Assembly: GCA_964519665.1 (NCBI GenBank)
Contig: CAZFIV010000059.1
Location: 1 to 42,427 of the forward strand
From: an uncultured Myxococcales bacterium
GTDB taxonomy: Bacteria > Myxococcota > Kuafuiibacteriia > Kuafuiibacteriales > Kuafuiibacteriaceae
Direction: 5' to 3'
DNA length: 42,427 nt
Translations under genes and position numbers: made by a program
The notes under the pieces: generated by a model
The model's input: only the letters and a program-made list of their open reading frames with translations
Database searches by the model: none
What the model was told of the DNA's origin: nothing
Part shown: one piece after another, positions 6,956-32,513 of the stretch
How the letters are laid out: every line of letters starts with the position of its first letter
How positions within the stretch are numbered: position 1 is the stretch's first letter

Positions 6956-9538
6956 TTGGCGAACGGTTTGCACGGGAACGCTTCAATGAAAGCGGCGCTT
7001 CGTCCCGACGAGCTTCGTCGTCCCTGCCGGGCAGCCGACCACGAGTGCTTTCGAGCTGACCAACAATCGTTCGCCGAGGCCACAGTAGGACAGCCCCGAG
7101 CGGTCCGCAGCCTCGAGCTCGGTATTCGCATCGACTCGCCGGGCTACAACATGTTCGTGACCGGCCTATCGGGTTCCGGTCGAACTCACACGATCCGAGA
7201 GCTCCTCCGCCGTTTGCCGACCCCCCACCGTCGGGGCCACGACCGGGTCTACGTGCACAACTTCGAGGACCCATCCCGCCCGAAGCTGCTCACTTTCGTC
7301 CGGACTCAGGGTGTCCGCTTCAAGCAAGCGCTTCGTGAGATGGTCGAGACGGCGACCGAGCGCATCCCACAGATCCTGGACGAAGATGTGTATCAACAGC
7401 GCCGGCAGGCGATCACCGAACAGGCTCAAAGCGAAGAAAAGGCGCTCTTTCAGGCCCTGGAAGCCCGGATCCGCGAAGATGGGTTTCGTCTGATCGTGTT
7501 GCAAGGAGGTCCGATTCCGATACAAGCGATCGTGCCGGTGATCGATGGCAAGCCGATTCCGATCGAGGCGCTGCGGGCGGATCCCGAAGCGCGAAGCGCC
7601 CTCCGAGTGCAGAAGGTTCGCGAGCTACGGGTGGCGCAGCGACCGTCGCCGGAGGACGACGCGACCCTCGAAGCGCTGGTCAACGAGGCCATCGAAGACT
7701 TCGAGCGCCGACAGACCGAGCACCGCCGAGCCCTGGAAGACGCAGGCAAAGCCGCCCGGAGAATCGCTCGCCGAGCGACTTCGGCGCTTCTCGAGCTGGA
7801 GCGAAGTACGGTCCGGCGCGCCGTGGAAGGTCTGGTTGGCGATGTCAAAGCGGAGTTCGACGGCGAGGTGGTTTCGAAGCATCTCGATGCTTTGCTCGAG
7901 CACATGATGGCTCACCCTTCGCTGTTCGTACCCAGCGCGGGCCCGGAACCCCGACCGTCGCCGTCGGGTTCTTCGACGCTGGAGGCTACGCCCGAGCCGT
8001 TGGCCATCTACGGCGCGAACGTCATCCAGGAGGTCACCGGGGCCGATGCGCCGGTCATCGTCGAGCGGCACCCCACGCTCTCGAACGTGTTCGGTACCGT
8101 AGAGCGGGACGTCCTCGCGTCGGGGGCGGTGACCACGGACTTTACGAAGATTCGACCCGGAGCGTTGTTGAGGGCCGACGGTGGGTTCCTGATCATGTAC
8201 GCCCGCGACGTTCTGGCCGAGCCGGGCGTATGGCGAAACCTCATGCGGACCTTGCGTTCGCGGCAGCTCGAGATCCAGCGACCCGATTCGGTCCTGTATC
8301 TGCTTCCTTCGTCGGTGAAGCCGGACCCGATCGATATCGACGTGAAGGTCATCTTGATCGGTGACGAATACCTCTATCAGTTGCTGGCCTACTACGAGCA
8401 AGACTTCCTGAAAGTATTCAAGGTGAAGGCTGAGTTCGACTCGACCATCGAAGGTGATGCGCGGGGCACCTCGGAGTTTGCCGACGTGATTCGGGGGTTC
8501 GTGAGCCAGGACGATCTTCGGACGTTGGCGTCTGATGGTTGGGAGGCCCTCGCCGAACAAGCAGCTCGCCTCGCCGGCCACCGCGAACGGCTGTCGACTC
8601 GGTTTGGCGATATCCAGGATATCTTGAAGGAAGCCGACTATTGGGCGTGGTCGACCGGCGCGACGCAGATCGGTCGGGAGGCGGTCGACACCGCGATCCG
8701 CGAGATGCGGGGCCGACATCAACTTCTGTCCGATTTAATGACCCGCCAGATTCAGGAAGAGGTCGTCTTGATCGATACTCAGGGGTCGCGCATCGGTCAG
8801 ATCAACGGGCTGGCGGTCTTCGGCTCCGGAATTCACCGATTCGGCAAGCCGACCCGAATCACCGCGGCGATCGGCGCGGGCCGCGGCGGTCTCATCAACA
8901 TCGAGCGAGAGGCGCATCTGTCGGGTCCGACCCACGATAAGGGGATCCTGATCCTGGCTGGATACCTTCGTTCGAAATACGGGCGGGAGACGCCGCTCGC
9001 GCTCACCGCGTCGATCGCCTTCGAACAGTCTTACGGGGGCGTCGACGGGGATTCGGCCTCCTTGGCCGAGCTCTATGCGCTCCTCTCGGCGATCAGCCGG
9101 CGGCCGCTGCGGCAGTCGGTCGCCGTCACTGGATCGATCAATCAACGCGGAGACGTGCAAGCGATCGGTGGCGTCAACGAGAAGATCGAAGGCTTTTTCA
9201 ACCTGGCTCAGGCTCGCGGGCATTCGGGGCAGGGGTGCTTGATCCCGGTGGCGAACCAGCAACATCTTATGCTCGACCAGTCGGTTGTCGAAGCGGCCGA
9301 GCAGGGGCTTTTTTCAGTGTGGACCGTCGATTCCGTCGAAGACGGCATCGAACTCATGTTCGGTATCCCGCCGTCCGAATTGCACGCGTTGGTGCGTAAG
9401 CAGCTCGAGGCGCTCGCCGAAGTCTCGAATGGCGAGCCCTCGGTGCAGCGTATCGATCCGGCTCGGCCGTACCGCGACGAACCACCTTCGGTCCCTGAGG
9501 ATCCGAAGCTCCCCGGTCCCAGTCGAGTCGACGACTAA
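6956..9538 (+). CDS. Lon-like ATP-dependent protease (N-terminal AAA-like domain plus C-terminal S16 Lon proteolytic domain)
   Basis: 860 aa. The C-terminus has the Lon catalytic Ser-Lys dyad context GGVDGDSASLA...VAVTGSINQRGDVQAIGGVNEKIEGF. The N-terminus has a P-loop-like GLSGSGRT; the start could be one of the downstream Mets. Confidence 0.75.
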   Translation: MANGLHGNASMKAALRPDELRRPCRAADHECFRADQQSFAEATVGQPRAVRSLELGIRIDSPGYNMFVTGLSGSGRTHTIRELLRRLPTPHRRGHDRVYVHNFEDPSRPKLLTFVRTQGVRFKQALREMVETATERIPQILDEDVYQQRRQAITEQAQSEEKALFQALEARIREDGFRLIVLQGGPIPIQAIVPVIDGKPIPIEALRADPEARSALRVQKVRELRVAQRPSPEDDATLEALVNEAIEDFERRQTEHRRALEDAGKAARRIARRATSALLELERSTVRRAVEGLVGDVKAEFDGEVVSKHLDALLEHMMAHPSLFVPSAGPEPRPSPSGSSTLEATPEPLAIYGANVIQEVTGADAPVIVERHPTLSNVFGTVERDVLASGAVTTDFTKIRPGALLRADGGFLIMYARDVLAEPGVWRNLMRTLRSRQLEIQRPDSVLYLLPSSVKPDPIDIDVKVILIGDEYLYQLLAYYEQDFLKVFKVKAEFDSTIEGDARGTSEFADVIRGFVSQDDLRTLASDGWEALAEQAARLAGHRERLSTRFGDIQDILKEADYWAWSTGATQIGREAVDTAIREMRGRHQLLSDLMTRQIQEEVVLIDTQGSRIGQINGLAVFGSGIHRFGKPTRITAAIGAGRGGLINIEREAHLSGPTHDKGILILAGYLRSKYGRETPLALTASIAFEQSYGGVDGDSASLAELYALLSAISRRPLRQSVAVTGSINQRGDVQAIGGVNEKIEGFFNLAQARGHSGQGCLIPVANQQHLMLDQSVVEAAEQGLFSVWTVDSVEDGIELMFGIPPSELHALVRKQLEALAEVSNGEPSVQRIDPARPYRDEPPSVPEDPKLPGPSRVDD

Positions 9539-9689: not shown

Positions 9690-12008
9690 ATGTTCTTTAC
9701 CGACGTTCCCGCTCCGCGCACATCGATGATCGTCTGGTTCCTTGCCGCCGCGTCGCTGGTGCTTGGGCCCGCGGCCGCAGAGGCGGGACCCGCGGATGAA
9801 TCGGAGCCCACGCCCGGCACATTGGCGATCGAAGTCGGGAAGGGTTCGGATGCGGCCCCCTGGGTCGCGGCGGCGCTCGAGGCGCATCTCGCCCGTGAAC
9901 TTTCGACGTACGAACGGTTGAGCGTTCGTCACCCGGACGCGGCGGTCCATCAGGCTTGCGGTCAAGACCGCGGTTGCCGGTTGGCGCGATATCGCGAAAC
10001 CGGTGTCGACGTGCTGTTTGTGATGTCGGTTCGCGCTGACGCCATTCGTTACGAGCTTTACGAGACCTGGACTCCGTCCGAGGTCGACCGGGGCGCCATC
10101 GCACTCGGCGATATCTCGACCTTGATCGGGCTGCGGCAGCGCTTGCTGGCCGTTTTTACTCCGGTGCTCGCGCCTGGTGGCCTCCTTGACCAAAAGCCGT
10201 TTCGAACTTCGGGACGAGCGTTGAGCGGGGTCCCCGCGGTCCGCCCCGACCGCATAGCGGCGCTGCTCGCTGCGGTTGCGTTGTTCCTCGCTGTTCCTTG
10301 GGGTTTCGCATTCATGGTCCTTTCGGACCGGCGCCGGCTGTGGAGTCAGCGATGGCCGTCGCTGTGGGCGGCCACAGGGGCACTGGCGGTAGCGGCGGCG
10401 CTGATGCTGGGGGCTGGAGACCGGTTGACGGTGGGGCCATCCGCGTGGGTGCTGGGTCTGGTCGGTGGCGCGGCGTGGGGCACCTTCTTCGTGACCAACG
10501 TCCGATTCCTGGCGCCTCCACTGCCTGGGCTCGGCCGGGTGGAGCACCGAGACGTGTTTCGCCTGGTCGTCGCGTGGCTGGTCGTGGGTGGCACGCGATT
10601 CATCGGCCTGACGCTTTATTACCTTCCCTTTGCGTGGGTCACCTTCGAGATGGATGAGGGCCTTGGTCTGTCGTCGGAGGCGGCAATGATACTGCTCGCG
10701 CCGTCGGTGGGTCTGATGGCCCGCGGCTGGTTGTCGAGCTGGATGCACGTGGCGGCGCTGGTCCTCGATGAATGGTTGGTCATCGGCGAGGCTGGTCCCG
10801 ACAATCCGTGGCACCGCGAGGTCTCGAGGTATTTCACCGGCTACCTCCGCCGCACCGGGTGGGCGCTCGACCCCGAGATCCTCGACTCCCTCCTCTTTCT
10901 CCCCGGCGAGCGCGAAGGTGTCCGGTGCTACGGCGGCGGCGGGATTCCGGCCCGGGTGGTCATCGACGAGCGCCTGTTGATTTTGGCCATCGGGGCTCGC
11001 GACGACCGGGATGAAGACGGCGAAGCGGTGGCGGTGCCCGACTGGACGGCGGGACTCGTGATCGCGCAGTCCTCGCCGCCGCCGGCAGCTCGGCCGCGGC
11101 CTCGTCGGCAGCCTCGCTTACGCGGTCGGGCTCCGCTTGTTCGCCGGGAGCCGCTGACCTCCGAAACGGGCCATCAGCGCAAGCATCTCGGTCAGGCGGC
11201 AACGCTCTTGGGCTATGTGCGGCCGGAGCCCGAGGAGCATGTGCCGCTCATCGCGGACACCGTCGAAGACCTCGAGGTCGTGCGGGCCCTGCTCGCCGAG
11301 CACTATCAATGGTTCGCTCCGGATCCCGATGAAGACCACGATGACACCGATCCGACCGACAAAGACTTCTTGTTCGGCCCGCTCACCCACGCCGTCGGGC
11401 GGTTGATTCGCCAGGACAGCCGGCTCGGGATCTTCGCGCTCCTGGCCGCGGAGCGAGCCCACCGCAGTATGACAGTGGTACGTTGGCTGCACCGGCAGAT
11501 GACCGCGCTGGTGACCGGCCTCGTTGGACGCTCGGCCGTGGTCATCGCCGACGCCTACCCCGCGCTGCATTTCGCGGGTCATCATCACCTGCAGTATCTC
11601 GTGTACCGAGGGACGGGCCGCGAAGACCACTTGACGGTGCGAGCGAGCCTCGATGAGCTCGAGCGCACCTCGAGGCGCGCTCTAGGGAGGGTCGGCCGAG
11701 AAATGGTCGAAGCCGACCCGCCGACCCGCCCGGTGTTCGTGCGCCGCCTGGTTTGGCTGTCGAGCTTCCTCGCCGAACCACTGGTCGACCGCGGCGAACG
11801 TCGGCTTCGTTGGGCGGCAACGACGCTCATGGTGTTGGTAGCGCTCGGCGGACTGGGCGGCTCTGTCTATCGGGCCGTCCGCTACCACCCGGTATACATC
11901 GAACGAATGGCGGAGCAGGAGCGCCGCCGGCAACGGGTCGATCACCAAGAAGCTCAAGAGAACGAAGGAGCTGCATCGCATGTCGGAAAAAGAAACGCCT
12001 CCGAGTAG
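9690..12008 (+). CDS. large polytopic membrane protein, unknown function (first gene of 7-gene coupled operon)
   Basis: 772 aa with an N-terminal signal-like hydrophobic segment (MIVWFLAAASLVLGPAAAEA), a central cluster of about 6 TM helices, a cytoplasmic region and a C-terminal TM segment. It overlaps the next gene by 29 nt. Confidence 0.55.
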   Translation: MFFTDVPAPRTSMIVWFLAAASLVLGPAAAEAGPADESEPTPGTLAIEVGKGSDAAPWVAAALEAHLARELSTYERLSVRHPDAAVHQACGQDRGCRLARYRETGVDVLFVMSVRADAIRYELYETWTPSEVDRGAIALGDISTLIGLRQRLLAVFTPVLAPGGLLDQKPFRTSGRALSGVPAVRPDRIAALLAAVALFLAVPWGFAFMVLSDRRRLWSQRWPSLWAATGALAVAAALMLGAGDRLTVGPSAWVLGLVGGAAWGTFFVTNVRFLAPPLPGLGRVEHRDVFRLVVAWLVVGGTRFIGLTLYYLPFAWVTFEMDEGLGLSSEAAMILLAPSVGLMARGWLSSWMHVAALVLDEWLVIGEAGPDNPWHREVSRYFTGYLRRTGWALDPEILDSLLFLPGEREGVRCYGGGGIPARVVIDERLLILAIGARDDRDEDGEAVAVPDWTAGLVIAQSSPPPAARPRPRRQPRLRGRAPLVRREPLTSETGHQRKHLGQAATLLGYVRPEPEEHVPLIADTVEDLEVVRALLAEHYQWFAPDPDEDHDDTDPTDKDFLFGPLTHAVGRLIRQDSRLGIFALLAAERAHRSMTVVRWLHRQMTALVTGLVGRSAVVIADAYPALHFAGHHHLQYLVYRGTGREDHLTVRASLDELERTSRRALGRVGREMVEADPPTRPVFVRRLVWLSSFLAEPLVDRGERRLRWAATTLMVLVALGGLGGSVYRAVRYHPVYIERMAEQERRRQRVDHQEAQENEGAASHVGKRNASE

Positions 12009-12834
12009 CCCGGCGGCCGGTTCAGCCGGCGAAGCACCGGAACCACAGTTCTTCGAGACGGTGCATCGCTCTCGCCTCGCCATCAACAAAGCGAGAGCGG
12101 GGGCCGGCGTAGCGGGCTTGCTCGGGTTCGGGGCGCTGTTCGTCGTAGCGGCGGTCTTCTTCGTGACCGAGAGCTACTTCATCTCGATGATGATGATCTC
12201 TTTTGCGCTGCTCATCTACGTGTCCGGCGCCGAGCTGGTAAAGCTGTTCCTTTCGACGGTGACCGTCTTCTTTTCGAGTAAGCACGTCATCGATCGGGCT
12301 TCGTACCTGCAAGAAACGCTGGTGCCCATGCAGAGATTCTTGCAGGTCCGACTCGATACGACCGGGACGGTCAAGCTCAGCGCGATCCAGCCGGGAGCGA
12401 CGGTCAAGCTGCCCGACAATCCGCTTTCGCGCGACATCGCCACTATCTTGGATGGCAAAGAAGAGCCCACAGAGTATCTTCAATACATCGCGCACGCCTA
12501 TTACGCCGAGTGCCACGAGCTCTACGACTACTCGAGCGCTCACCTCGAGTTCGTCGCGCAGACCATGCCGCTGTTCGGCTTGATCGGCACCATCGTCGGC
12601 CTGATCGGCATGTTCGACAGCCTGAGCGCCGACGTCACCGTCGAGTTCGTTTCGCCGCAGCTGGCCCTGGCACTCAAGACCACCCTGTACGGGGCGGTCT
12701 TCTCGTCGATCTATAAGATCATCGCCTCCCGCTTCGACCAGCGGCTCAAGGCGCTGGACTACGACTTCGAGACCTTCTGCCGGGCGCTCGAAGTCCTTAT
12801 CGAGAGCAAGGCAAAAGTGAGGGTCGGCTCATGA
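11980..12834 (+). CDS. MotA/TolQ/ExbB-family proton-channel protein
   Basis: 284 aa with a 2+2 TM topology and a roughly 120-aa cytoplasmic loop. The C-terminal MotA_ExbB signature is MPLFGLIGTIVGLIGMF...LALALKTTLYGAVFSSIYKII. The 4-nt overlap with the next gene indicates translational coupling. Confidence 0.8.
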   Translation: MSEKETPPSSPAAGSAGEAPEPQFFETVHRSRLAINKARAGAGVAGLLGFGALFVVAAVFFVTESYFISMMMISFALLIYVSGAELVKLFLSTVTVFFSSKHVIDRASYLQETLVPMQRFLQVRLDTTGTVKLSAIQPGATVKLPDNPLSRDIATILDGKEEPTEYLQYIAHAYYAECHELYDYSSAHLEFVAQTMPLFGLIGTIVGLIGMFDSLSADVTVEFVSPQLALALKTTLYGAVFSSIYKIIASRFDQRLKALDYDFETFCRALEVLIESKAKVRVGS

Positions 12835-13436
12835 AGCGCGTTTACGTGCTCCCGCGCGCCCCTCGGCGAGGAGGCGAAGTATGGCAGATCATCTATATGG
12901 ATTTGATCACCATCGTCATGGTGTTCTTCGTCATCCTGTGGTCCATCAATCAAGGTCGCGACGACAGCTCCGCCGATTCAACGGGAGACGAGACGACCCG
13001 CAAGGTGAATCTCCCCGGCGATGTTCTGTTTCCATCCGGCAAGTCCGAGCTCACCCCTGAAGGCAAAGAAGTGTTCAGCAAGTTGTTCGAAGAGGGCACT
13101 GACGAGGTCCTCAACTTCGATCTCGGGGGGCTCAATCGTCGTCTATTGATCATCCACGGGCACACCGACAGCGATGGCGACAAGATCAACAACTTTGGTC
13201 TCGGCTACCGGCGGGCGTTCTCGGTGTACCGAGAGATCGAGTTCTATGGCCCGCAGGTCGCCGACCACGTCGTCATCTGCACGCATGCCGACAACTCGCC
13301 GGTCCAAAGAACGCCGGCCTTCCAGGGCCGCCTGAGCCCGGCCCAGCGGGAGGCGTTGCGCGAAGCGAAGTCCCGCAACCGGCGCATCACCATCGAGGAT
13401 AAGATCGTCAGCGTGACGGCGGTCGACGAAGAGTGA
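12831..13436 (+). CDS. MotB/TolR-like stator subunit with OmpA-like peptidoglycan-binding C-terminal domain
   Basis: 201 aa. The N-terminal segment WQIIYMDLITIVMVFFVILW matches the MotB TM/plug region with the conserved protonatable Asp. The C-terminal GHTDSDG...N..LGYRRAFSV matches the OmpA-like motif. Confidence 0.8.
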   Translation: MKRVYVLPRAPRRGGEVWQIIYMDLITIVMVFFVILWSINQGRDDSSADSTGDETTRKVNLPGDVLFPSGKSELTPEGKEVFSKLFEEGTDEVLNFDLGGLNRRLLIIHGHTDSDGDKINNFGLGYRRAFSVYREIEFYGPQVADHVVICTHADNSPVQRTPAFQGRLSPAQREALREAKSRNRRITIEDKIVSVTAVDEE

Positions 13437-13442
13437 CGCCCT

Positions 13443-15059
13443 ATGCGGATCGGCGCCAAGAGTATCACCGGGTTTACACTTTTGGTCGCGAGTACCCTCA
13501 CCGCGGTGTCTTTGGGGCGCCTGAGGGCGGACTATCTCGCGCAGCTCGACCCGTGGACGAGTTTTGCGGTCGGGGCCTTCGCGGTCGTGGCGGCCCGGGC
13601 CGTCTTTCACTTCGGGCGCCTCGGTCAGTCCAGCGAGAATTTTCTCCGTATCGGCGGGGCCGACGGCGCTCGGGTCGAACGGGAAGACCCTTTCGGCCAG
13701 GGCCCCCGACGTCAGCCGATCTGGTGGCGAAGGACCCGCGCCGGGCTGTTGCAGACCGCCTACGTGGCGATATTTCTGCAGGTCGGGCTGGTGACCCTCG
13801 ACAACCGCGGCGTCGCGCTGCTCGCGGCCTTGCCGGCCGCGTTCGGCCCCTCCAGCTACGAGTACTGTCTCGAAGAACAAGCACCGGAACCCGAGGGCCC
13901 CGAGCTCGCGGGCTGCAGTCTGATCAGGAGAGCCTACGAACTCGGCTATGCCAGCGATCTTGGGCCCTGCGCACCGAAGGAAGAGGAGGTCGCCGATGCC
14001 GTTTGCGACCGCCGTCAGCTCGACGAACCGTATCTTCACTACGCATGGCGACTCCTCGGGGCGCGCCGCGCCGACCTCCTGCCGGACGCTCGAGAAGGGG
14101 TGCAGGCGGCGCTGACCAAGATCGATGAGCAGTGGGAGCATCTGGGTGACCTCGTGCTCGCTCAGCGGGATCCGATCGCTCGGACCCCGCGCGCTTCGCA
14201 CCATCTATTCACCAATCTGCCGCCGCCGCGCGAAGACGTGGTCGGCCGGGTGGTGGATGTGCTCGACGCGGCGGCTTGCGATCGACGGGCGATGAACATG
14301 CCTCCGCTGGTGGCCGTCTCGGAACAGACGAACGCTTCGAGCTCGATCGTCGAGCACGTCGTCGGACATCTGCTGTTCAATCCCGCTTATCCCACGGTGG
14401 TCGGTTCCTGCCGCGAATTCACGATCCACTGGGCAGCGTCGACCGATATCTGCGACCGGTTGGTCGAGGGACCGGCCGGCGTTCTAGAAAACGACCGGAC
14501 CCTCGCCGGGGTGCGAACAGTGATGGCCCGGTACCGGCGCGCACTCGTAACCTGGGAACTGGCCGGCGAAAGTGGAGCGGGCCCCATACCTCCTCGGCCG
14601 CCCCCGCTGAAGAAGATCGTGAGTTTCCAGTGCTTCATGGTCGACCGAACGTCTTCTTCGGTGGCGACCCCAGTCACGTCGCGTACGACGACCCTGCACG
14701 GCCATACCTTGAGCGTACGCTTGACTCGGGTGGCGCCCTTCGGTGCCGACGTGCGCGACCAGATCGGTACGTTCAAGCACCTGTCTCGTCTGCTCGCGCC
14801 GGGCTTCGGGTACGGGTCGCTGCAGAGCGAACAATCGTTGGTCGAGGCCGCGGCGGGATTGTCGGTGGCCAAGCAATTCACCAATGACCGAGACCTGCTG
14901 AGCAAGCTCGAGCTCTTGCGAGAGACGGACATCTTTCTCGGTCACGAATGGCTCGACCGACGACCGGACCTGTTGGTCGTATATCCGTACCACGTGCATC
15001 TGAACAATTTCGTCGAGGCGTTTCGTAGGCACTATCAGCACGCGAGGACCCGACTATGA
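13443..15059 (+). CDS. hypothetical membrane-anchored protein (4 N-terminal TM helices, large soluble domain)
   Basis: 538-aa ORF with GC-rich third positions, beginning 7 nt after the MotB-like stop. No recognisable domain. Confidence 0.5.
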   Translation: MRIGAKSITGFTLLVASTLTAVSLGRLRADYLAQLDPWTSFAVGAFAVVAARAVFHFGRLGQSSENFLRIGGADGARVEREDPFGQGPRRQPIWWRRTRAGLLQTAYVAIFLQVGLVTLDNRGVALLAALPAAFGPSSYEYCLEEQAPEPEGPELAGCSLIRRAYELGYASDLGPCAPKEEEVADAVCDRRQLDEPYLHYAWRLLGARRADLLPDAREGVQAALTKIDEQWEHLGDLVLAQRDPIARTPRASHHLFTNLPPPREDVVGRVVDVLDAAACDRRAMNMPPLVAVSEQTNASSSIVEHVVGHLLFNPAYPTVVGSCREFTIHWAASTDICDRLVEGPAGVLENDRTLAGVRTVMARYRRALVTWELAGESGAGPIPPRPPPLKKIVSFQCFMVDRTSSSVATPVTSRTTTLHGHTLSVRLTRVAPFGADVRDQIGTFKHLSRLLAPGFGYGSLQSEQSLVEAAAGLSVAKQFTNDRDLLSKLELLRETDIFLGHEWLDRRPDLLVVYPYHVHLNNFVEAFRRHYQHARTRL

Positions 15060-15688
15060 GCGGCGTGGGTTCGGCGGGGGTCGTCATCTCGATGCTCATG
15101 GCGACCGGGGCGCCCTCTATTATGGAAGCGGGCGACAGCAGTGACGTCCGGCGCCGCACTCTGGAAGATACCTTCGTGGCCTTTCGAGCAATGGACGAGG
15201 CGTCACGAACTCGAATCTTCAACTATATTTATAGAATCGAGCGAGATAAGTGCCAGGCGCCGCTGAGAAGCCTGAAGGTGGGCTGCCTGCTCGAGGCGGC
15301 GCGCCGAAACTGCCGACGGCGCGGGGTCCATCAGCGAAAAGAGTGTCGCCGGGTCTCGGATGTCATCGTCGCCAATCGGCTGAGCGAGCCGAGGTTTCTG
15401 ACCCGTTCCGACCGCTACCAAATTATGAAAGAAAGCGACAACTATCGCGACGGGCTGTCGGCGGAGCTTCGCCGACGCTATGCGCGTTTGGTGACCGGGC
15501 TGTACCTCAAAGTGCCGGTGCCTGCCGACGCGGCGCCCGAAACCTTGGCCGCGGCCGTAGACGGATACTGTCTCGACATTGCGGGGCAACGCAGCCGACT
15601 GTCGTGGACGCACTGCGCCGCCGCGGTGGTCTGGTTTATCGGTACGAGCCCGAGCGAAGCGTCGGTTGACAAGGCGGTGGGGCCATGA
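15056..15688 (+). CDS. hypothetical Cys-rich protein
   Basis: 210 aa with 4-nt overlaps at both ends (ATGA coupling). No recognisable domain. Confidence 0.45.
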   Translation: MSGVGSAGVVISMLMATGAPSIMEAGDSSDVRRRTLEDTFVAFRAMDEASRTRIFNYIYRIERDKCQAPLRSLKVGCLLEAARRNCRRRGVHQRKECRRVSDVIVANRLSEPRFLTRSDRYQIMKESDNYRDGLSAELRRRYARLVTGLYLKVPVPADAAPETLAAAVDGYCLDIAGQRSRLSWTHCAAAVVWFIGTSPSEASVDKAVGP

Positions 15689-16848
15689 CCCGTGCACTGC
15701 TGCGGCACTTGGCGAACGAGACCAGCAAGCTTCAGCAGGCGGGGCTCTACAAGCAGGAAGTTGCCGACGAGCGCGATGCGCCGAGCGGGTCCATCGACTT
15801 CACGAGCGGCGACGTCCTCGGCCTCGAGCATCGACCCGAGGTGGCCGACGCGGCTGTCGCCGCCATTCGCGAACACGGGCCTGGGCGGTCGTCGCCACGT
15901 CTGTTTGGTGGCACGCTGTCGATTCACCAGAGGTTGGAGGCGAGGGTCGCTTCGCTGATCGGTGTACCCGAAGCGATCGTGTACGCCAGCGGCTATCTCG
16001 GCAACGTCGGTCTATTCGATACGATGTTCGATGCGCGGGACTGTATTCTCGTCGACGCTGCGGTCCATCCCAGCTTGGCCGAGGGCATTCGACTCTCCGG
16101 GGCCCGGGCCTTGCCTTACGTCAGTGAGGATCTCGAGAGTCTAGACGACCGGCTGCGACGGTCGCGAACGGCCCGATTCCGAGTCGTGGTGACCGATGGC
16201 GTCTTTCCTTTGAGTGGAAATCTTGCACCACTGGGCGAGCTGTGCGATCTCGCGGACCGCTACGACGCGCTGGTGGTCGTGTACGACGCATTGGGCGTCG
16301 GTGTTCTCGGCGACGGGCAAGGGGGCAGCGTCGAAAAGTGGGGCGTCGCGGGTCGGGTGGACCTGGTCACCGGGACGTTCGTCGATGTGCTCGGTGGAGC
16401 AGGGGGGGGCTATGTGGCTGGTCGGCCGGAGATGATCTCGTGGCTGCGCCAGAAGTCCACGCCTTATCTATTCTCGGGTGCGCTCCCACCCGGAAACGCC
16501 GCCGCTGCCCAGGCCGCGATCGAGCTGGTGAGCAGCGGCCAAGCGCCCGCCCGCGAGGTCCTGGCTTTGACCACGGCCTTCAAAGAGCAGCTCGAGGGCC
16601 GAGGGTTCGACGTTCAAGGTGACGGGCACGCCATCCTCACGGTCGTCGTCGGCAACGCGGTGACGCTGCAGCGGATGGTCAACCAGCTGGGGGAGCTCGA
16701 TGTGCGGGTGCAGGGTATGTGCTATCCTGTTGTGCCCGAGAACATGGCACGCATTCAGTTCAGGATCACCGCGGCTCACACCGAGGCGGTGCTGAGCACT
16801 GCGGTTGAACGTCTGGCGCAAGCGGCCCAAACACTGCACCTCCTATGA
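15685..16848 (+). CDS. alpha-oxoamine synthase family (AONS/KBL/serine palmitoyltransferase-like) PLP-fold protein lacking the catalytic Lys; predicted pseudoenzyme
   Basis: 387 aa with the class-II aminotransferase fold (HPSLAEG ~ HAS motif; GTFVDVLGGAGGGYVAG ~ GTFSKALGxxGGY). The Schiff-base Lys position is Asp (T-F-V-D), and the D-x-A-H motif is VYDALGVG, with His replaced by Leu. Confidence 0.7.
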   Translation: MTRALLRHLANETSKLQQAGLYKQEVADERDAPSGSIDFTSGDVLGLEHRPEVADAAVAAIREHGPGRSSPRLFGGTLSIHQRLEARVASLIGVPEAIVYASGYLGNVGLFDTMFDARDCILVDAAVHPSLAEGIRLSGARALPYVSEDLESLDDRLRRSRTARFRVVVTDGVFPLSGNLAPLGELCDLADRYDALVVVYDALGVGVLGDGQGGSVEKWGVAGRVDLVTGTFVDVLGGAGGGYVAGRPEMISWLRQKSTPYLFSGALPPGNAAAAQAAIELVSSGQAPAREVLALTTAFKEQLEGRGFDVQGDGHAILTVVVGNAVTLQRMVNQLGELDVRVQGMCYPVVPENMARIQFRITAAHTEAVLSTAVERLAQAAQTLHLL

Positions 16849-18422
16849 CGGTGAACGAGTCTTCGACGGACCTGCGGCGAAGGATGGCCCTTCGATTCTC
16901 TGGGACGACCGCGGACCTACCGCGGTCGATCTTCGGCCGCCTCCGCTACGCCTCCGGTATCGCCAGCCTAGGCGGATTTCGAAGGCTCGTCCGAATCCTG
17001 CCCGACAGCGAGACCCGGGCCGTGGCTGACCAGAAGGCGGTCGAGAACATCGTGCTGTCGCTCGGCCGGCTCAAGGGCGTGCCGATGAAGTTAGGGCAGC
17101 TGGCGGGGTATGCCGACTCCGGTGTTCCGCCGGCGCTGCGGCCGGCCTTCGCGGCCCTCGAAACCCACGCCCAGGCGGTACCCGTGGCCCACATGCGCGC
17201 GGTGCTGGATAAAGAGCTCGGGCCGCGCGCAGACGAGCTGTGGACGACCATGAGCTGGACCCCAGTCGCGGTCGGCACGCTCGGTCAGGTATACCGGGCG
17301 GAGCTCGACGGGACGCCCGTCGCGGTCAAGATTCGATACCCGGACATCGAGAGGACGATCCGCCTCGATTTTCGCCCGGCCGCCCTCGGCTCTCAGGCGA
17401 TGGACGCCTTTCGCCGCCGGGGGCGACGAGGCGATGCGACCATCAAAGAAATCATGGGTCGTATCCTCGACGAGTGCGACTACCGCCAAGAAGCAGAGCG
17501 GCAGCAAGCCTTCGCTCACGCCTTCGACGAGCATCCGGTCATCACCGTGCCGCAGATCTTTTCAGAATATTCGACGCCGGCCGTCCTGACCACCGAGCTC
17601 GCGGAAGGGCAGCACCTCGACGAATACCTGGCGACGAAGCCGAATGTCGAAGCACGGGAGCGCGCAGGGCTGGCGTTGTTCGACTTCTACGTCGGGTCGT
17701 TGTTCGTGTTGGGGGCGTACAACTCGGACCCGCACGCCGGAAACTACATCTTTACCGACGATGGCCGAGTCGTCGTGTTCGATCACGGCGCGGGCCGAAC
17801 CTTTTCGAGCGTCCCGATCAGTGCGATCCGATACCTGGGGCAAGCGATGCTCAGCGACGACTGGGCCGGGGTTCGCGAGGCCCTCGGGGCCCTCGGAATC
17901 GTGCCCAGCCGAGAGCGGCTCGATGAAGCGCCGCTGCGGCGGGTGCTGACCTGGCTGTTCGAGCCGATGCTCGCGCCCGACGAGTCGCAGTGGACCTTGC
18001 CGAACGCGGAGGAGGTCGGTGCGATCACCAAGTGCGTGCGGGAGTACAAGGCGATCGAGCTTCCGTCGGAGCTGGTCTTCTTGATTCGGCTTCGGGTCGC
18101 GCTATCGGCCGTGTTGGCTCGGCTCGGAGTGCAGGCCAACTGGCGAGAGGTTCTCGGTGCCCATCTCCAGGGTGACTTCTTTCTTCGGCCCCCCCCGCTC
18201 GATGTGGTGCTCGTCGAGCCCGGTCCCCGTCCGATCGAGCTGCTACGGGTCTTGCGGGACGAGCTCGGCGGTGCGGTCACCGAGGCCAAGGCGCTGATCG
18301 ACGCCGTCCCCTGCGTAGTGCGGTCCGAGCTCGACCGAGACGTAGCGAGGGCCGTCGGGGCACGACTCACCGCAGCCGGAGCAAAAGTCGACCTGCGAAC
18401 GCCCCCGGAAGCGCGTTCCTAA
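16845..18422 (+). CDS. ABC1/UbiB-family atypical protein kinase fused to a C-terminal ribosomal L7/L12 C-terminal-like domain
   Basis: 525 aa. The ABC1 signature is WTPVAVGTLGQVYRAELDGTPVAVKIRYPDIERTI plus a downstream catalytic HAGN motif. The last ~70 aa (LDVVLVEPGPRPIELLRVLRDELGGAVTEAKALIDAVPCVVRSELDRDVARAVGARLTAAGAKVDLR) align colinearly with the bL12 CTD (FDViL..GanKvaViKavR..tGLGLKEAKdLVEsaP..lKegvsKddAEalKkaLEeAGAeVevK). Confidence 0.75.
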   Translation: MTVNESSTDLRRRMALRFSGTTADLPRSIFGRLRYASGIASLGGFRRLVRILPDSETRAVADQKAVENIVLSLGRLKGVPMKLGQLAGYADSGVPPALRPAFAALETHAQAVPVAHMRAVLDKELGPRADELWTTMSWTPVAVGTLGQVYRAELDGTPVAVKIRYPDIERTIRLDFRPAALGSQAMDAFRRRGRRGDATIKEIMGRILDECDYRQEAERQQAFAHAFDEHPVITVPQIFSEYSTPAVLTTELAEGQHLDEYLATKPNVEARERAGLALFDFYVGSLFVLGAYNSDPHAGNYIFTDDGRVVVFDHGAGRTFSSVPISAIRYLGQAMLSDDWAGVREALGALGIVPSRERLDEAPLRRVLTWLFEPMLAPDESQWTLPNAEEVGAITKCVREYKAIELPSELVFLIRLRVALSAVLARLGVQANWREVLGAHLQGDFFLRPPPLDVVLVEPGPRPIELLRVLRDELGGAVTEAKALIDAVPCVVRSELDRDVARAVGARLTAAGAKVDLRTPPEARS

Positions 18423-18437
18423 CCTCGCAAGCCGAGG
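18423..18437. terminator. short GC hairpin (cctcg-caagc-cgagg) in the 32-bp spacer between convergent genes
   Basis: 5-bp stem immediately after the TAA stop of the kinase gene. It sits between the convergent gene ends at 18422 and 18455 and is weak (no U-tract). Confidence 0.25.
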
Positions 18438-18454
18438 CCGAGCGGGCCTTTCGA

Positions 18455-18988
18455 TCACTTCGCGAGGAGCGAGTGGACCGAGATGCTGGCGAGTGCCAGG
18501 TCGGCCGTCATGGCCTTGCCGATGGCCACGAGGCCGAGTCGGCGAACGCGTGAGCGGTCGAGGGGCGCATCGATTCGATGGGGAACGAAGCCATCGACGG
18601 GAAGGTCGACCACGGTCCAGACCGGCGGAGCTCGAAAGGACTGCCGATACGACTGCCAGGGGTGTCGAACATCGGGCGTCTTGAGGTGACAGCCGTAGGT
18701 CTCGCCGTTGCCCAGCACGAGCAAGCGCAGTTGAGCGCTCGAGGACAGGTCGAGCTCGAGGTTGGCCGCCATCTGTACGAAGCCTCCGCCATTGTCGAGG
18801 CGAACGTGCCCCACGAGCCGCAGTGCCGGACGGCCGTCGATGACCTCCGCTCGTAGCTCCCCCGATGAACGACCGCCCATGACTTGGTCGAGAACGAGAG
18901 TAAAGCGCGGTCCCTGCTTGGACGGATCGAAGATAAGCATAAACCAGTGTCCGGCCGGAGAGTACAGGCTGACAAATCGCTGGTCCAT
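18455..18988 (-). CDS. CIA30-family protein (complex I intermediate-associated protein 30-like)
   Basis: 177 aa with the conserved QVMGGRSSGEL (VMGGvS) CIA30 motif. Its start ATG directly abuts the TGA of the upstream redoxin gene (TGAATG). Confidence 0.6.
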   Translation of the reverse strand: MDQRFVSLYSPAGHWFMLIFDPSKQGPRFTLVLDQVMGGRSSGELRAEVIDGRPALRLVGHVRLDNGGGFVQMAANLELDLSSSAQLRLLVLGNGETYGCHLKTPDVRHPWQSYRQSFRAPPVWTVVDLPVDGFVPHRIDAPLDRSRVRRLGLVAIGKAMTADLALASISVHSLLAK

Positions 18989-19777
18989 TCAGTCGAGGTG
19001 CGCTCGCAACGCCGCGAGCACGACTTCTGGACCAGAGCGCCGCAGATAGTCCTCCGCCTGGTCGATCCACAAGACCTTGCCCTGTTGGTCCACCAGCAGT
19101 GAGGTTGGTACCGGCAGCGCGTCTGCGTGATCGCTCGGTGGGCCTGAGTGGAATCCTTGATTGCGCAAGCCAAACGCATCGGTCACCACCAGCTTCGGAT
19201 CCGACAGCATGATGGCCTGCAGTCCGTGCTGGTCACGCTTTGCGCGTATCGCTTGAGGCTGATCCGTGCTCACCGTGAGCACCTGAACCCCGCGTCGATC
19301 GAACTCCGGCCGCAGTTCTTCCCATCGCCGCAACTCGGCGACGCAGTAGGGTCACCAATGCGCGCGGAAGAACTTAATGAGTACGATGTGACCCCTGAGG
19401 CTCTGGGAGTCAAAGGCATGGCCGTGTTCGTCGACCGCGGCAAAGCGCGGTATCGTGTCGCCCACCTGGATGGCATCGACTGCGGCTTCCTGCGAGCTGA
19501 CCGCGATTGTCAACGGAACGAGCGCCCCGAAGAAGATCGCGGGCAGTGCCGCAATGGCGCCGTACCAGCGAGTGCCGGCCACGAACGCGCCGATTCCGAG
19601 CGCTCCCGCGGTCAAGAAGAGGAACACGAAGACAGACCGGTTCTCTGGAATCTCGACTCGATTGATCAGATGCGCCCACACCGCGAGGGTCACACCCACC
19701 AGTGCGGCCGCCAGTAATCCGAACGTCGTCCCCAACCTTTTCGGATTCTTTCTACGCGCCCTCGGTGCCTCGTTCAT
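18989..19777 (-). CDS. membrane-anchored TlpA/ResA-like thiol:disulfide oxidoreductase, selenocysteine-containing candidate (in-frame UGA at 19352..19354; U-P-Y-C redox motif)
   Basis: Track ORFs 19352..19990 and 18989..19333 share one frame and are separated only by a TGA: ...GHIVLIKFFRAHW-[TGA]-PYCVAELRRWEELRPEFDRRGVQVLTVSTDQ... This is a redoxin domain with TGA at the first Cys of WCxxC. A 7-bp hairpin with an AGUUG loop (GUCGCCG-AGUUG-CGGCGAU) starts 9 nt after the UGA, which is bSECIS-like. The N-terminal part has 2-3 TM helices. The start is uncertain (19777 MNEAPR..., or up to 19990). Confidence 0.65.
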
Positions 19778-20053
19778 GCTTCGACCCGCTTCCACGACTT
19801 GAATCGAGTCGGACAGTAGCGAGCGAAACGGCTCAATGCAACCAACCCGACTGCATCGGCTCGTACGCATCATCGATGACCCGCCGTCGGAAGGGCGCTC
19901 AGTCCCGCCGTCAGCTCGAGAGGCGGTGGCGTCCGTCCGACCGGCGAAGCCTGCTCGTGCTCGCCGCGGAGCTTCCATAACTGCCTTCATGGCTTATCGT
20001 CAGATTCCGCACTTCACTCGGACACTTCGCTATCGTCTTCGGCTCGCCGTCCA

Positions 20054-20458
20054 TTGCCCCAATCACTGGCAATCGGCGGTTTCCGCTTCAGACATCGGGA
20101 CGGCTACGCAGTTCGCGACGTCATGAATCTCACCGATGTGGGGCACCTGGCCGACGATGCGGACAGCGGCGAAGACAAGATGGAGCCGGCCGCGAGGAAG
20201 AGCGGGCGGGACATCCGGGATCTATCGCGGCTGTACACGGCTGCGTTCTTCGAGCACTTGGGCGACTTGGCCGTCGTTCCGCCCGTCTCGGGCGACGTCT
20301 TCAAAGCGGTCAGGAATCCGGACCTTCCGCCGACCGACGTCGTGAGGCTCGTCGCCGACGCCGGTCGAGGGCTTGGGCTCCGTTCGTTGGCGGGCCCGGC
20401 TGTTGGCGGGCCCGGTGGGCGGCGATGGCGGCGCCACGCCATTTCAGCTCAGGACTGA
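20054..20458 (+). CDS. hypothetical protein (weak call)
   Basis: 134-aa ORF in the gap between two minus-strand genes. Its composition is more protein-like than the antisense alternative 20104..20442, but there is no domain and no clear RBS. Confidence 0.25.
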   Translation: MPQSLAIGGFRFRHRDGYAVRDVMNLTDVGHLADDADSGEDKMEPAARKSGRDIRDLSRLYTAAFFEHLGDLAVVPPVSGDVFKAVRNPDLPPTDVVRLVADAGRGLGLRSLAGPAVGGPGGRRWRRHAISAQD

Positions 20459-21941
20459 GCGAGGGAATCGCGGATGGTCTGCAGCACGTGGATCCGCGCA
20501 TATCGCTTGCTATTCGCCGGAACGATGACCCAAGGGGCGGTCGCCGTGCTCGTGCGCGCGATCATTTCGTTCACGGCCTCCTCGTAGAGGACCCACTTGT
20601 CGCGGTTGCGCCAATCTTCTTCGGTGATTTTGTGGCGCTTGTAGTCGATCTGTTGCCGTTCTTCGAACCGGCGCAACTGCTCGTCCGCGTCGATGTGAAG
20701 CCAGAATTTCAGCACCTTGACGTTGGCGATCGAGAGCTGCTCTTCGAACTCGTTGATTTCGCGGTACGCACGCTTCCACTCCGCGGTCGTCGCAAAGCCC
20801 TCCACCCGTTCGACGAGCACGCGGCCGTACCACGAGCGGTCATAAATGGTGAATCGCCCGCCCCGCGGAACGCGTCGCCAAAAGCGCCACAGGTAGTGTT
20901 GGGCGCGCTCCTCATCGGTCGGGGCTCCGACTGAGATCACCTGAAACAGACGCGCATCGAGGGCCGCGACGAGGCGCCGGATCGTGCCGCCCTTGCCGGC
21001 GGCGTCCCAGCCTTCGAGGACGACGACCGTCGAACGTTTCGCCTCGTACGCCTCGGCGGCGAGGCGACCGATCTCCTCTTGCAGCCGCTCCAACCGCTTC
21101 TCGTACGTTTCGTCGTCAACGCTCTGCGAGAGGTCGACCCGGTCGAGGATGGTGATCTGATCCCCTGGGGGCGGGTTGAGCACCGCGTCCGTCGAACCGT
21201 TACCGTGGTCGCTCTCGGCGCGCTCCGTCGCTTGCTCGGCCGCCATCTTCATCGCCTGAAAGACGGCCTGCGTGACGGCGAGGTCGCGGTAGCGACGGTC
21301 CCACGCTTCGATGAGCTGCCATCGGGCGAGCCCGAGGTCGGTGATGCGAATCGCGCGCTCGGCGGCCGCGACGAGCTCGTCGTACCGAGAGTGGAGTTTT
21401 CGATCGCCCTTCGAGACTCGCCATTTGGTGGCCTTCTTGGCGTCCCACTTCTTGTAGCGTCGCGCCTGCTGTTCCTTCGTGATGTGCAGCCAGAACTTCA
21501 GGATGAGCGCGTGGTCTACGGCGAGCATTCGCTCGAGCCGTACGACGCTCAAAAGCTCGCGTTCGAACCGTGCCTGGTCGATTTTGCCCAGCACATGGCG
21601 ACGAATCAATCGCTCGTACCAGCCCCCAAGGTAGATGCCGATGCGCCCGCGTCTCGGCATCGTCACCCAGTGTCGCCATTGCGGCGGTCGTTCGCGCGCT
21701 TCGTCCGTGGGATCGCGGTCCGTGTGGACTTCGACGCCTCGCACGTCGAGGAGCTTGGTCAGGAAATTGAGGACACCACCTTTTCCCGCCCCGTCGACCC
21801 CCTCGATGATGATGATGACCGGGACGTCGCTCTTCTGCAACGCAAACTGCGCCTTCAGCAAGGGTGCCCGCAGTGCGTCGAGGCTCGCGTCAAATTCGTC
21901 CCTCGAGAGGCGTCGGCCCAGTGCGGCAGTCTCGAACATGT
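20449..21941 (-). CDS. two-domain polyphosphate kinase 2 family protein (PPK2; polyphosphate:AMP/ADP phosphotransferase-like)
   Basis: Two tandem PPK2 domains, each with a Walker A (IIIEGVDGAGKGG and VVLEGWDAAGKGG) and lid motifs (YLWRFWRRVPRGGRFTIYDRSWY). The likely start is MFETAALG at 21941, preceded by GGAGAAAAC; the track ORF extends to 22083. Confidence 0.85.
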
Positions 21942-24507: not shown

Positions 24508-24705
24508 CAACGAGCGAAGTCGGGTGGGCGCGATTCACTCGCGCCCGGGCCCCGCTGGCAAGCGTCGCGCGCAGCGAGCAGAGCGAGCGAAGTCGGGTGG
24601 GCGCGATTCATTCGCGCCCGGGCCCCGCTGGCACGCGTCGCGCGCAGCGAGCGGAGCGAGCGAAGTCGGGTGGGCGCGATTCATTCGCGCCCGGGCCCCG
24701 CTGGC
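24508..24705. repeat. 73-bp tandem repeat, about 2.7 copies, each containing a perfect GC hairpin (gggcgcga-ttca(t/c)t-cgcgccc); REP-like intergenic element
   Basis: Direct repeats start at 24512, 24585 and 24658 with a period of 73. The copies differ at 2-3 positions and the third copy is truncated. The same 45-bp core occurs at 3219..3268. Track ORFs beginning MNRAHPTSL... are translations of this repeat and are not genes. Confidence 0.85.
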
Positions 24706-25901
24706 TTCCGACGGAGGAGGTTCGACCGGGGCTCCGGCGAAGCGCTCGAGGGTGCCGGGGGCACCGGCGCGTGGGGCCCCATTCGGGCTCGGCGCATGTC
24801 TTCGCGCTGCTCGGCCCGCTGGTCGGCCTCCTGTCTCCGACGGTTCTCTTGCTCTTCTCGAATCTTGTAGACGAACGAAAGCACCTCGGCGACCGCCTCG
24901 TAGAGCTCCTCCGGGATTTCTTCGTCGATGTCGAGCTTGTTGAGTGCCTGTGCCAGGGGCACGTTTCGCAAGATGGGCACGCCGTAGTGTTTGGCGAGCT
25001 CTTTGATCTTCTCGGCGTGCACCCGCATACCCTTGGCCACGACTTTGGGCGCCTGGTCGCGGTCGCCGTCGTACTTGATGGCGACCGCGATGTGAGCGGG
25101 GTTCACGACGACGGCGTCCGCGTTCTTCACGTTTTCTTGGCCTCCACCGAAGAGTAGCTCGTGGGCGAGTTGCTTTCGCTGCCCCTTCATCTGAGGGTCA
25201 CCTTCGGATTGCTTGTACTCCTGTTTGACGTCGTACTTCGACATCATCTGCTCTTTGAAGAACTGTCGACGGCTCCAGATGAGGTCGATGACGCCGATGA
25301 AGATGAACAGCGCGGTCGTTTTGAGCAGGTACTCCCACACCAACCCGCCGCCATAGTCGACGGATTGGTCGATGGGTAGAGTGACCGACAACGTCATGTC
25401 GTAGACCGCGTTCTTCATGATGTCGTACGCAAGCCATCCTGCGGCCGCCATCTTCACCATGTTTTTGATGAGCTCGACGAACTTCTTGATCTTGAAGAGA
25501 CCCTTCAGGCCGTTGACCGGATTGACCTTGTCGAGTTTGGGCACCAGGACCTTGAACGCCATGAAGAAGCCGGTCTGCATGACGTTGCTGAAGATGCCGA
25601 TCACGAACACGGCCGCGCCGACCGGCAGCGAGACTTTGAGCACCAGCGGGATCGCCTCCTGCATGAGCTTGGCGATCGTGGCTTCGCTGGGCTCGCGGCT
25701 GGCGGCGTCGATCGCCGCGCGGGCGAAGTCTTCGACTTCGCCGAAAACAAAGGTGATGAGGGCGACCAGGCACACAAAGCCAAACGCGAAGCCGAGCGCG
25801 CCGACGAAATCCTGGCTCTTGGGCACCTGCCCCTCTTCCTTGGCTTTGCGGAGTTTTTCGGGGGTTGCCTCTTCGGTCTTCTCCCCGGTTTCGCCGGACA
25901 C
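24681..25901 (-). CDS. sctU: type III secretion export apparatus switch protein SctU (FlhB/YscU family)
   Basis: 406 aa with 4 N-terminal TM helices and the conserved autocleavage site VVNPAHIAVAIKY (NPTH-type). The C-terminal domain is colinear with YscU/FlhB (EEIPEELYEAVAEVLSFVY). The last 8 codons and the stop fall inside the third repeat copy. Confidence 0.9.
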   Translation of the reverse strand: MSGETGEKTEEATPEKLRKAKEEGQVPKSQDFVGALGFAFGFVCLVALITFVFGEVEDFARAAIDAASREPSEATIAKLMQEAIPLVLKVSLPVGAAVFVIGIFSNVMQTGFFMAFKVLVPKLDKVNPVNGLKGLFKIKKFVELIKNMVKMAAAGWLAYDIMKNAVYDMTLSVTLPIDQSVDYGGGLVWEYLLKTTALFIFIGVIDLIWSRRQFFKEQMMSKYDVKQEYKQSEGDPQMKGQRKQLAHELLFGGGQENVKNADAVVVNPAHIAVAIKYDGDRDQAPKVVAKGMRVHAEKIKELAKHYGVPILRNVPLAQALNKLDIDEEIPEELYEAVAEVLSFVYKIREEQENRRRQEADQRAEQREDMRRARMGPHAPVPPAPSSASPEPRSNLLRRKPAGPGRE

Positions 25902-25978
25902 GCCGAAGATCTTACACGAACCCGGCCCGTCCGTCTTCGCCCGTGGGCCCCGCGCGGGTGGCCGGCGACCCGGTCCGG

Positions 25979-27853: not shown

Positions 27854-27933
27854 GAATACCCCCTTTTTGAAGTCCGGCTGCTATATACCCGAACTTTGAG
27901 GGTGGCGATGACCTAGCCCACGGTCACCGAAAA

Positions 27934-28758: not shown

Positions 28759-28819
28759 ACTTGTTCGGTTCCGATGCCGTCGTCGAGCGCTCCCGTGGTT
28801 TGGCTCGCAGGGCCGCCCG

Positions 28820-30132: not shown

Positions 30133-30135
30133 CTC

Positions 30136-32429: not shown

Positions 32430-32513
32430 GCTCTCGAGGTGGTACCCCTCAGGCTCTCGTGGTGCAAGTGAGTCGGGTGGACTGATGCCCGCGGACCCAC
32501 TAACCCTCTATCC

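Follow-up and report, generated by a model that had tools for sequence, protein, structure and literature searches.

A Kbl-like protein lacking the Schiff-base lysine, a predicted pseudoenzyme, is encoded within a conserved MotAB-type gene cluster of uncultured Myxococcota

The locus described here raises the question of whether a protein with the fold of a pyridoxal 5′-phosphate (PLP)-dependent enzyme, encoded amid the genes of a putative membrane motor, can still be an enzyme, and what part it would play if it is not. The locus lies in a 42,427-nucleotide stretch of DNA, hereafter the window, from an uncultured Myxococcales bacterium (GenBank:GCA_964519665.1, contig CAZFIV010000059.1). Seven closely spaced genes on the + strand (9690-18422), with stop and start codons overlapping in most cases, encode a protein X, a MotA/MotB-type pair, proteins Y and Z, the protein in question, named here KblL (Kbl-like), and an ABC1-type kinase (Table 1). 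The kblL start codon overlaps the stop codon of the Z gene and its stop codon overlaps the start codon of the kinase gene, by 4 nt on each side. A preliminary description of this DNA had taken the KblL product to be colinear with the α-oxoamine synthases (AONS), and database searches bore this out, as PF00155 (aminotransferase class I/II fold) matched it over the full length (Pfam, 2e-36) and the top PDB match by phmmer was Escherichia coli Kbl (PDB:1fc4; E 1.5e-84, query residues 8-383), with about 40% identity over the full length. The highest curated NCBIfam matches were glycine C-acetyltransferase (Kbl) models, all below their cutoffs (NF005394, 346.9 bits vs. a cutoff of 460; TIGR01822, 315 vs. 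493), and the models for BioF, serine palmitoyltransferase (SPT) and 5-aminolevulinate synthase likewise scored KblL under their cutoffs. Hydropathy analysis detected no transmembrane (TM) segment, signal peptide or hydrophobic N-terminal anchor in KblL. We conclude that KblL descends from Kbl rather than from SPT.

The columns of the catalytic and cofactor residues were read from a HMMER alignment to 1fc4, in which the chain numbering, as verified by counting, equals the native numbering plus 3, and again from alignments made with MAFFT and hmmalign for over 230 homologues. Kbl GTLGK244ALGG was aligned to KblL GTFVD234VLGG, and all three programs placed Asp234 in the column of the Schiff-base lysine; misalignment by eye was accordingly rejected as the source of the apparent loss. 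The replacement of Lys by Asp, which the preliminary description had read in the motif GTFVDVLG (KblL residues 230-237) while naming a profile alignment as a possible refutation, therefore holds. A second motif noted there, VYDALG (residues 199-204), was also recovered, Kbl VMVD210DSH213AVG being aligned to KblL VVVY200DAL203GVG; in this D-D-x-H motif, the Asp that binds N1 of the cofactor is the first one, and Tyr200 stands in its place. It had further been claimed that the PLP-stacking His was replaced by Leu, which proved to be wrong: the His lost is the one that binds O3′ (Kbl H213), and the ring-stacking His is kept as His128, with Kbl LNH136AS aligned to KblL AVH128PS. Kbl H136 and H213 are equivalent to His159 and His234, respectively, of the SPT of S. 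paucimobilis; the roles of residues in that enzyme are stacking on the PLP ring (His159), binding of the protonated nitrogen of the ring (Asp231), hydrogen bonding to the PLP hydroxyl (His234), formation of the aldimine (Lys265) and binding of the substrate carboxylate (Arg390) (PMC6148460). Three losses were found beyond those described earlier, namely 1) Kbl D210, replaced by Tyr200, 2) Ser185, replaced by Pro175, and 3) R368, replaced by Gln358.

In about 100 canonical representatives of the AONS family, H136, S185, D210, H213 and K244 were each conserved in 99 of 99 sequences and R368 in 96 of 96; therefore, the loss of five of these residues in KblL is not a matter of chance, and the combination of residues in KblL is far beyond the variation of the AONS family. 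Besides His128, KblL has kept the phosphate-contacting Thr231, Asn107 of a GxxAN-type motif and the Ser of a PYLFS segment, which we take to contact the cofactor phosphate of the partner subunit in the Kbl structure, and it has the structural motifs GT...H..LE and YPVVP in common with Kbl. It contains five Lys in total. No alignment column gains a Lys specifically in the Lys-less members of the family, and a migrated lysine was thus rejected. It is strongly supported by the sequence comparisons that KblL would be incapable of AONS-type PLP chemistry: it would be unable to form the internal aldimine with PLP, to protonate or stabilise the cofactor ring, or to bind the carboxylate of an amino acid.

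The same replacements recur in other genomes. Orthologues 65-72% identical to KblL were found in independent ENA and NCBI assemblies (P0002-P0004, L001 and L006, and partial copies P0005, P0009 and P0058), and in all of them the Lys column is occupied by an acidic residue (Asp or Glu), D210 by Tyr or His, H213 by Leu and R368 by Gln. The ratio of nonsynonymous to synonymous substitutions (dN/dS), estimated by the Nei-Gojobori method from the window, L001 and L006, was 0.13-0.22 for KblL, which indicates purifying selection and is close to the value for Y (0.17-0.25) and below that for the ABC1 kinase (0.27-0.32), with 0.08-0.12 for MotA and 0.06-0.13 for MotB, these ratios being approximate because dS was near saturation (1.1-1.7). 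An AlphaFold2 model of KblL, built from a family alignment of 42 sequences, had a mean predicted local distance difference test score (pLDDT) of 91.8 and a predicted template modelling score (pTM) of 0.89, and in Foldseek it superposed on E. coli Kbl 1fc4 with a TM-score of 0.94. The preliminary description had suggested structure prediction as a check, and the outcome is an intact AONS fold; a frameshift or sequencing error, which it had named as refuting, is not borne out by the intact reading frame and the same substitutions in independent assemblies. That the gene is a decaying pseudogene, or a product of assembly or sequencing error, is hardly credible. A copy at one other locus (L016) does carry two frameshifts and one locus (L012) is without the gene, but kblL in the window has 387 intact codons, overlaps its neighbours on both sides, encodes a product with a confident and complete model, and is not an artefact or a decaying gene because of its low dN/dS and its independently assembled orthologues. 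KblL is thus a folded protein that is selected for and lacks the equipment for PLP chemistry, and the earlier reading of it as a pseudoenzyme is supported by the five replaced contacts, the lack of a compensating Lys, the intact fold and the low dN/dS.

How widely the lysine has been lost was assessed in a sample drawn independently of similarity to Kbl, by using protein Y of the cluster as the query, with one genome per species. Among the KblL proteins so obtained, the Lys column held K in nine and another residue in 12 (D/E in three, Y in three, H in two, and P, N, A and M in one each). Exhaustive profile searching, which covered 1.84 billion representatives, brought in some 20 further Lys-less members, whose residue at this position is T, N, H, Y, E, A, G, R, M or W, and all the canonical AONS hits in that search had K. 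Across the operon-linked family, which was defined without the tandem double-AONS protein P0226, 12 or more different residues occur at the position of the Lys. When 129 sequences were placed in a neighbor-joining tree with true Kbl as the root, lineages without the Lys fell into eight separate clades; in neighbor-joining trees calculated without the catalytic columns (60 bootstraps), at least five changes between K and non-K were required by unconstrained parsimony, and 7-11 losses when regain was disallowed. The catalytic Lys is dispensable across the family, its loss having been repeated and independent.

The remaining catalytic residues follow the lysine in part. H136, D210 and R368 are kept in 57%, 68% and 74%, respectively, of the Lys-less members and in at least 96% each of the Lys-retaining ones. 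The changes of His213 to Leu and of Ser185 to Pro are shared by the majority of operon-linked members, among them large clades in which S-K-A-L-G is strictly kept, and the His-to-Leu change is therefore no hallmark of the window protein, but a trait of the wider family that includes Lys-keeping members. Within the tree set, Gln at the R368 column was found only in the Asp/Glu subclade, to which KblL belongs, and in P0017; having lost D210 and R368 as well, the subclade of the window is the most degenerate. Seven positions (D43, P129, D155, R159, S160, W253 and C346) are conserved in members with and without the Lys and differ from Kbl, and are candidates for serving a shared non-catalytic function.

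These family data bear on the possibility that KblL is an enzyme of non-canonical chemistry, holding PLP or an adduct non-covalently, accommodating another cofactor in the old pocket, or using a lysine from elsewhere. The retention of His128, Thr231, Asn107 and the PYLFS Ser would suit such an enzyme, as would that of D210 in most Lys-less members, and AONS enzymes with K-to-A mutations can hold PLP adducts, as in SPT K265A with PLP-myriocin (PDB:4bmk). However, D210, H213, S185, K244 and R368 are all replaced in the window protein, none of its five Lys is specific to Lys-less members (K257 is less conserved in these than in the Lys-retaining ones), and the 12 or more chemically unrelated residues found at the Lys site indicate a site freed from constraint, not a new catalytic solution. 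We therefore regard a non-canonical enzyme as quite unlikely, and the pseudoenzyme as the better description of KblL.

To our knowledge, non-catalytic proteins of the AONS family are known from one case, the eukaryotic SPT1/LCB1, which KblL resembles in being an AONS protein conserved despite the loss of the equivalents of the catalytic Lys, Asp, His and Arg. AONS active sites are located at the dimer interface, and SPT1, which has neither the Lys nor the equivalents of His159, His234, Asp231 and Arg390, is nevertheless essential (PMC6148460). By analogy, a Lys-less KblL could be the inactive half of a heterodimer, pairing with a catalytically active AONS paralogue from another site in the genome and giving residues in trans to one shared site; the Ser retained in the PYLFS segment, and the existence of a tandem protein (P0226) that joins a Lys-containing and a Lys-less AONS domain, speak for this. 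It is unlikely nonetheless, since no second AONS gene was found in the 42-kb window by tblastn or among the called genes of six loci, and since Lys-kept and Lys-less orthologues share one single-copy slot, which points to an ancestral homodimer. SPT1/LCB1 is, moreover, membrane-anchored and an obligate heterodimer with the catalytic SPT2, whereas KblL is bacterial, has no TM segment or membrane anchor of the SPT1 type, has no visible paralogue either in the window or at the loci with lists of called genes, and occupies a slot that also holds Lys-retaining orthologues.

As for the tandem protein itself, P0226 (867 aa) has V in place of the K in its second AONS domain, with Leu at H213, and resembles a covalently fused heterodimer of the SPT2/SPT1 type. 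A fusion of KblL to an operon partner was considered for this protein and rejected, as it is a tandem double-AONS protein.

The likeness of KblL to Kbl is that of the nearest relative by both sequence and fold, with equal length, the same domain order and a shared stacking His. It differs from Kbl in having none of Lys244, Asp210, His213, Ser185 and Arg368; four of the five defining catalytic features were not found in it, and its scores were below the curated cutoffs. In addition, the gene has no tdh neighbour and sits inside a cluster of the MotAB type.

That cluster is conserved. On the contigs of six KblL homologues spanning the family, the order X-MotA-MotB-Y-Z-KblL was found in six of six. 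The search with Y returned 16 loci, all from uncultured metagenome-assembled genomes (MAGs), mostly labelled Myxococcota, Kofleriaceae, Polyangiales or "delta proteobacterium". KblL was located directly 3′ of Z in 20 of the 21 loci fetched, and the order X-MotA-MotB-Y-Z-KblL was kept there and on the contig of P0089. For P0129, P0124 and P0126, which are among the most divergent Lys-less representatives, KblL came directly after Z, and after Y where the contig allowed, the neighbours on these short contigs being recognised as Y or Z by hidden Markov models with E-values of 1e-42 to 1e-59. In total, the cluster was found at 25 loci, nearly all in MAGs labelled Myxococcota, and every family member with an examinable context lay in it. 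The "membrane-motor operon" proposed in the preliminary description is thus a conserved arrangement. Two loci of the sample carry other labels, Ectothiorhodospiraceae (L017) and Gammaproteobacteria (L021), and both encode a KblL in which Tyr stands in place of the Lys; these labels could stem from faulty binning or from a horizontal spread of the cluster.

The linkage of KblL to the motor genes could in principle be merely positional, with KblL, alone or together with the ABC1 kinase, doing a separate metabolic or regulatory task in the cytoplasm. The ABC1 gene adjoins the cluster at about 10 loci, in a downstream, upstream or divergent position, and is absent near many others, which leaves room for this explanation; we consider it very unlikely in view of the adjacency of Z and KblL, usually with a 4-nt overlap, across 25 loci and among proteins only 30-50% identical. 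From this operon conservation we infer a structural or regulatory role for KblL as a subunit of the system.

On balance, it is probable that KblL is a catalytically dead descendant of Kbl that serves the motor cluster as a structural or ligand-sensing subunit in the cytoplasm. The cluster would most likely build a machine that spans the envelope and draws its energy from the proton-motive force, with the N-domain of X, the OmpA domain of MotB, Y and Z on the periplasmic side, and the loop of MotA, the large domain of X, KblL and the kinase on the cytoplasmic side. In such a machine, KblL would be a soluble, probably dimeric, scaffold or ligand sensor with a role independent of PLP catalysis. 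The role shared by the family most likely needs no catalysis, and would be that of a scaffold or sensor beside the loop of MotA, the domain of X on the cytoplasmic side and/or the ABC1 kinase.

Several observations weigh against this proposal. The Lys-retaining clades strictly conserve S-K-A-L-G, D210, H136 and R368, which means that PLP binding, and perhaps activity, is under selection in part of the family; since it is so in some clades, the common function of the family may not be purely structural, and the Lys-retaining members would probably still bind PLP, either as enzymes or as sensors. One locus (L012) has X-MotA-MotB-Y-Z and neither KblL nor ABC1 within 10 kb (11752-21752), and at L016 the kblL gene (12192-13366) is split over three frames by its two frameshifts, which could reflect either an indel error of a long-read MAG or a true pseudogene. 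All the carriers of the cluster are uncultured MAGs, the trees were by neighbor-joining only, and the near-saturated dS noted above affects the estimates of selection. X, Y and Z have no known relatives and the model of X is poor, which limits the annotation of the system. Finally, the physical association of KblL with the motor, the retention of a dimer, the binding of a ligand and the job of the whole system are inferences.

If KblL is what we propose, it would be a bacterial, Kbl-derived, single-copy dead AONS protein within a proton-motor operon, and its orthologues, which occupy one genomic slot with the Lys kept or independently lost, would form a natural series for the repurposing of a PLP enzyme. 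The seven-gene MotAB-type system would also be a candidate addition to the short list of machines driven by 5:2 motors. More tentatively, the cluster might represent an unrecognised class of proton-driven 5:2 motor in the envelope of Myxococcota, with a Kbl-derived dimer as its cytoplasmic input/output module, and the family might be in mid-transition from enzyme to pseudoenzyme, its Lys-retaining members still binding PLP as an atypical enzyme or to sense the metabolite state, and at least five lineages having given up the chemistry and kept only the part of a scaffold or sensor linking metabolism or the kinase to the motor; we hold this wider picture to be possible rather than probable.

The cluster resembles the 5:2 motor systems (flagellar MotAB/PomAB, ExbBD-TonB, TolQRA, AglRQS, GldLM and Zorya ZorAB) in having an overlapping MotA/ExbB and MotB pair accompanied by system-specific partners. 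The resemblance is limited to the parts list, as its MotA and MotB scored under every NCBIfam cutoff for stator, Tol and Exb proteins; the best NCBIfam match of the MotA-like protein was PomA, with 50 bits vs. a cutoff of 341. We know of no described 5:2 system that has a PLP-fold protein. Neither the cluster nor aminotransferases, ABC1 or Myxococcota are mentioned in a survey of MotAB homologues from 2025 (PMC12505986). The preliminary description had held a pseudo-AONS protein in a motor operon to be an undescribed arrangement, and in the literature surveyed, which included few subscription-journal papers and is therefore no proof of absence, we likewise found neither the cluster nor any bacterial AONS protein without the Lys described; usable mutagenesis of the O3′-binding His of 5-aminolevulinate synthase was not found either. 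Two candidate identities were rejected for the system. A flagellar stator was rejected because MotA and MotB were far under the stator cutoffs and no flagellar genes were present at L001-L021, and the motor pair is accordingly regarded as a MotAB-like family of its own. Zorya or another defence system was rejected because PADLOC matched ZorB models only weakly to the MotB-like protein and gave no match for any of the other seven; ZorA, ZorC, ZorD and ZorE were not found by PADLOC.

Table 1 Coordinates of the motor cluster, of the diagnostic KblL residues and of the export cluster in the window
Feature	Position	Strand	Remarks
X	9690..12008	+	772 aa, first cluster gene; no family match
MotA/ExbB-family proton-channel subunit	11980..12834	+	284 aa, large cytoplasmic loop; PF01618 9.6e-16
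MotB-like subunit	12831..13436	+	201 aa; plug, TM Asp, OmpA-like peptidoglycan-binding domain; PF13677, PF00691
Y	13443..15059	+	538 aa; N-terminal TM helices and periplasmic domain of ~420 aa with 8 invariant Cys; no family match
Z	15056..15688	+	210 aa, secreted/periplasmic, signal peptide, 6 invariant Cys; no family match
KblL (Kbl-like), predicted pseudoenzyme gene	15685..16848	+	open reading frame, 387 aa, ATG start
KblL His128	16066..16068	+	ring-stacking His kept (Kbl H136); HPS vs. canonical HAS
KblL Pro175	16207..16209	+	replaces Kbl Ser185; TDGVFS185M to TDGVFP175L
KblL Y200-D201-A202-L203	16282..16293	+	Tyr for N1-binding Asp (Kbl D210), Leu for O3′-binding His (Kbl H213)
KblL Asp234	16384..16386	+	codon GAT; replaces Schiff-base Lys (Kbl K244)
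KblL Gln358	16756..16758	+	replaces substrate-carboxylate Arg (Kbl R368); ARIR368TQ to ARIQ358FR
ABC1/UbiB-type atypical kinase	16845..18422	+	525 aa, with ribosomal L7/L12 C-terminal domain; PF03109 7e-45, PF00542 3e-9
FlhB	24681-25901	-	export cluster
FliR	27934-28758	-	export cluster
FliP	29092-30132	-	export cluster
FliO	30136-30828	-	export cluster
FliM/FliN fusion	30825-32429	-	export cluster
FliK-like hook-length protein	34955-35899	-	export cluster

Among the partner proteins, X, Y and Z matched no family in Pfam (E up to 1), NCBIfam, PADLOC and PDB sequence searches. From hydropathy, Cys content and alignments, X is predicted to have a signal peptide, a periplasmic N-domain, several TM helices and a Cys-poor conserved domain of 364 aa that is probably cytoplasmic. 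A homology search with X returned 11 proteins only, all without a name or "hypothetical". Its AlphaFold2 model was poor overall (pLDDT 56), the N-domain excepted, and this domain gave weak Foldseek matches (E 3e-3 to 1e-2) to the periplasmic folds of LpoB, TolB-N, GNA1162, PelC and CsgG, which suggest a periplasmic location and nothing beyond. The MotB-like subunit has kept the channel aspartate, Asp23 (YMDLIT).

Like KblL, the ABC1 kinase is predicted to be soluble. Its ABC1 domain is intact, as in UbiB, COQ8 and MABP-1, with the kinase motifs VAVK, DPHxGN and DHG preserved; it differs from these kinases in scoring far under the equivalog cutoffs (UbiB, 120 vs. 487; MABP-1, 132 vs. 800) and in the extra L7/L12 domain. 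This domain covers residues 453-517 (PF00542, 3e-9; TIGR00855, 2.9e-8), and the same ABC1-L7/L12 fusion also adjoins the cluster at L001, L002 and on the contig of P0089. The C-terminal domain of L12 is known to bind translational GTPases.

Elsewhere in the window, an 860-aa LonB/LonC-like AAA+ protease (AAA_32, LonB lid and Lon_C) is encoded just 5′ of the cluster (6956-9538, + strand); it gave a weak BrxL-like PADLOC match (E 0.002) and is not conserved beside the cluster at other loci. On the - strand, the two open reading frames 19352..19990 and 18989..19333 (18989-19990) constitute one frame broken by a single TGA at 19352-19354. This frame reads ...FFRAHW-TGA-PYCVAELRRWEEL..., which places W-U-P-Y-C where an AhpC/TSA or redoxin fold has its CxxC, with a Pfam match confined to profile positions 49-123 in the downstream part and hydrophobic stretches in the upstream part. 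The product is probably a selenocysteine-containing thiol:disulfide oxidoreductase; a hairpin (-27.8 kcal/mol) that begins some 8 nt past the UGA was not significant relative to shuffled sequences (z = -1.29).

About 6 kb from the motor cluster, also on the - strand, is a cluster for export and switch proteins of the flagellar or type III secretion system (T3SS) type (24681-35899). No flagellar or T3SS genes were found near the motor cluster at L001-L021. Such a cluster was unexpected, because the closest relatives of the window are MAGs of Myxococcota, which are generally described as non-flagellated. A further gene of the window (35948-39985, - strand) encodes a protein of 1345 aa in which a Ser/Thr protein kinase and an nSTAND1 NTPase are joined to an FGE-sulfatase (SUMF1-like) domain at the C-terminus.

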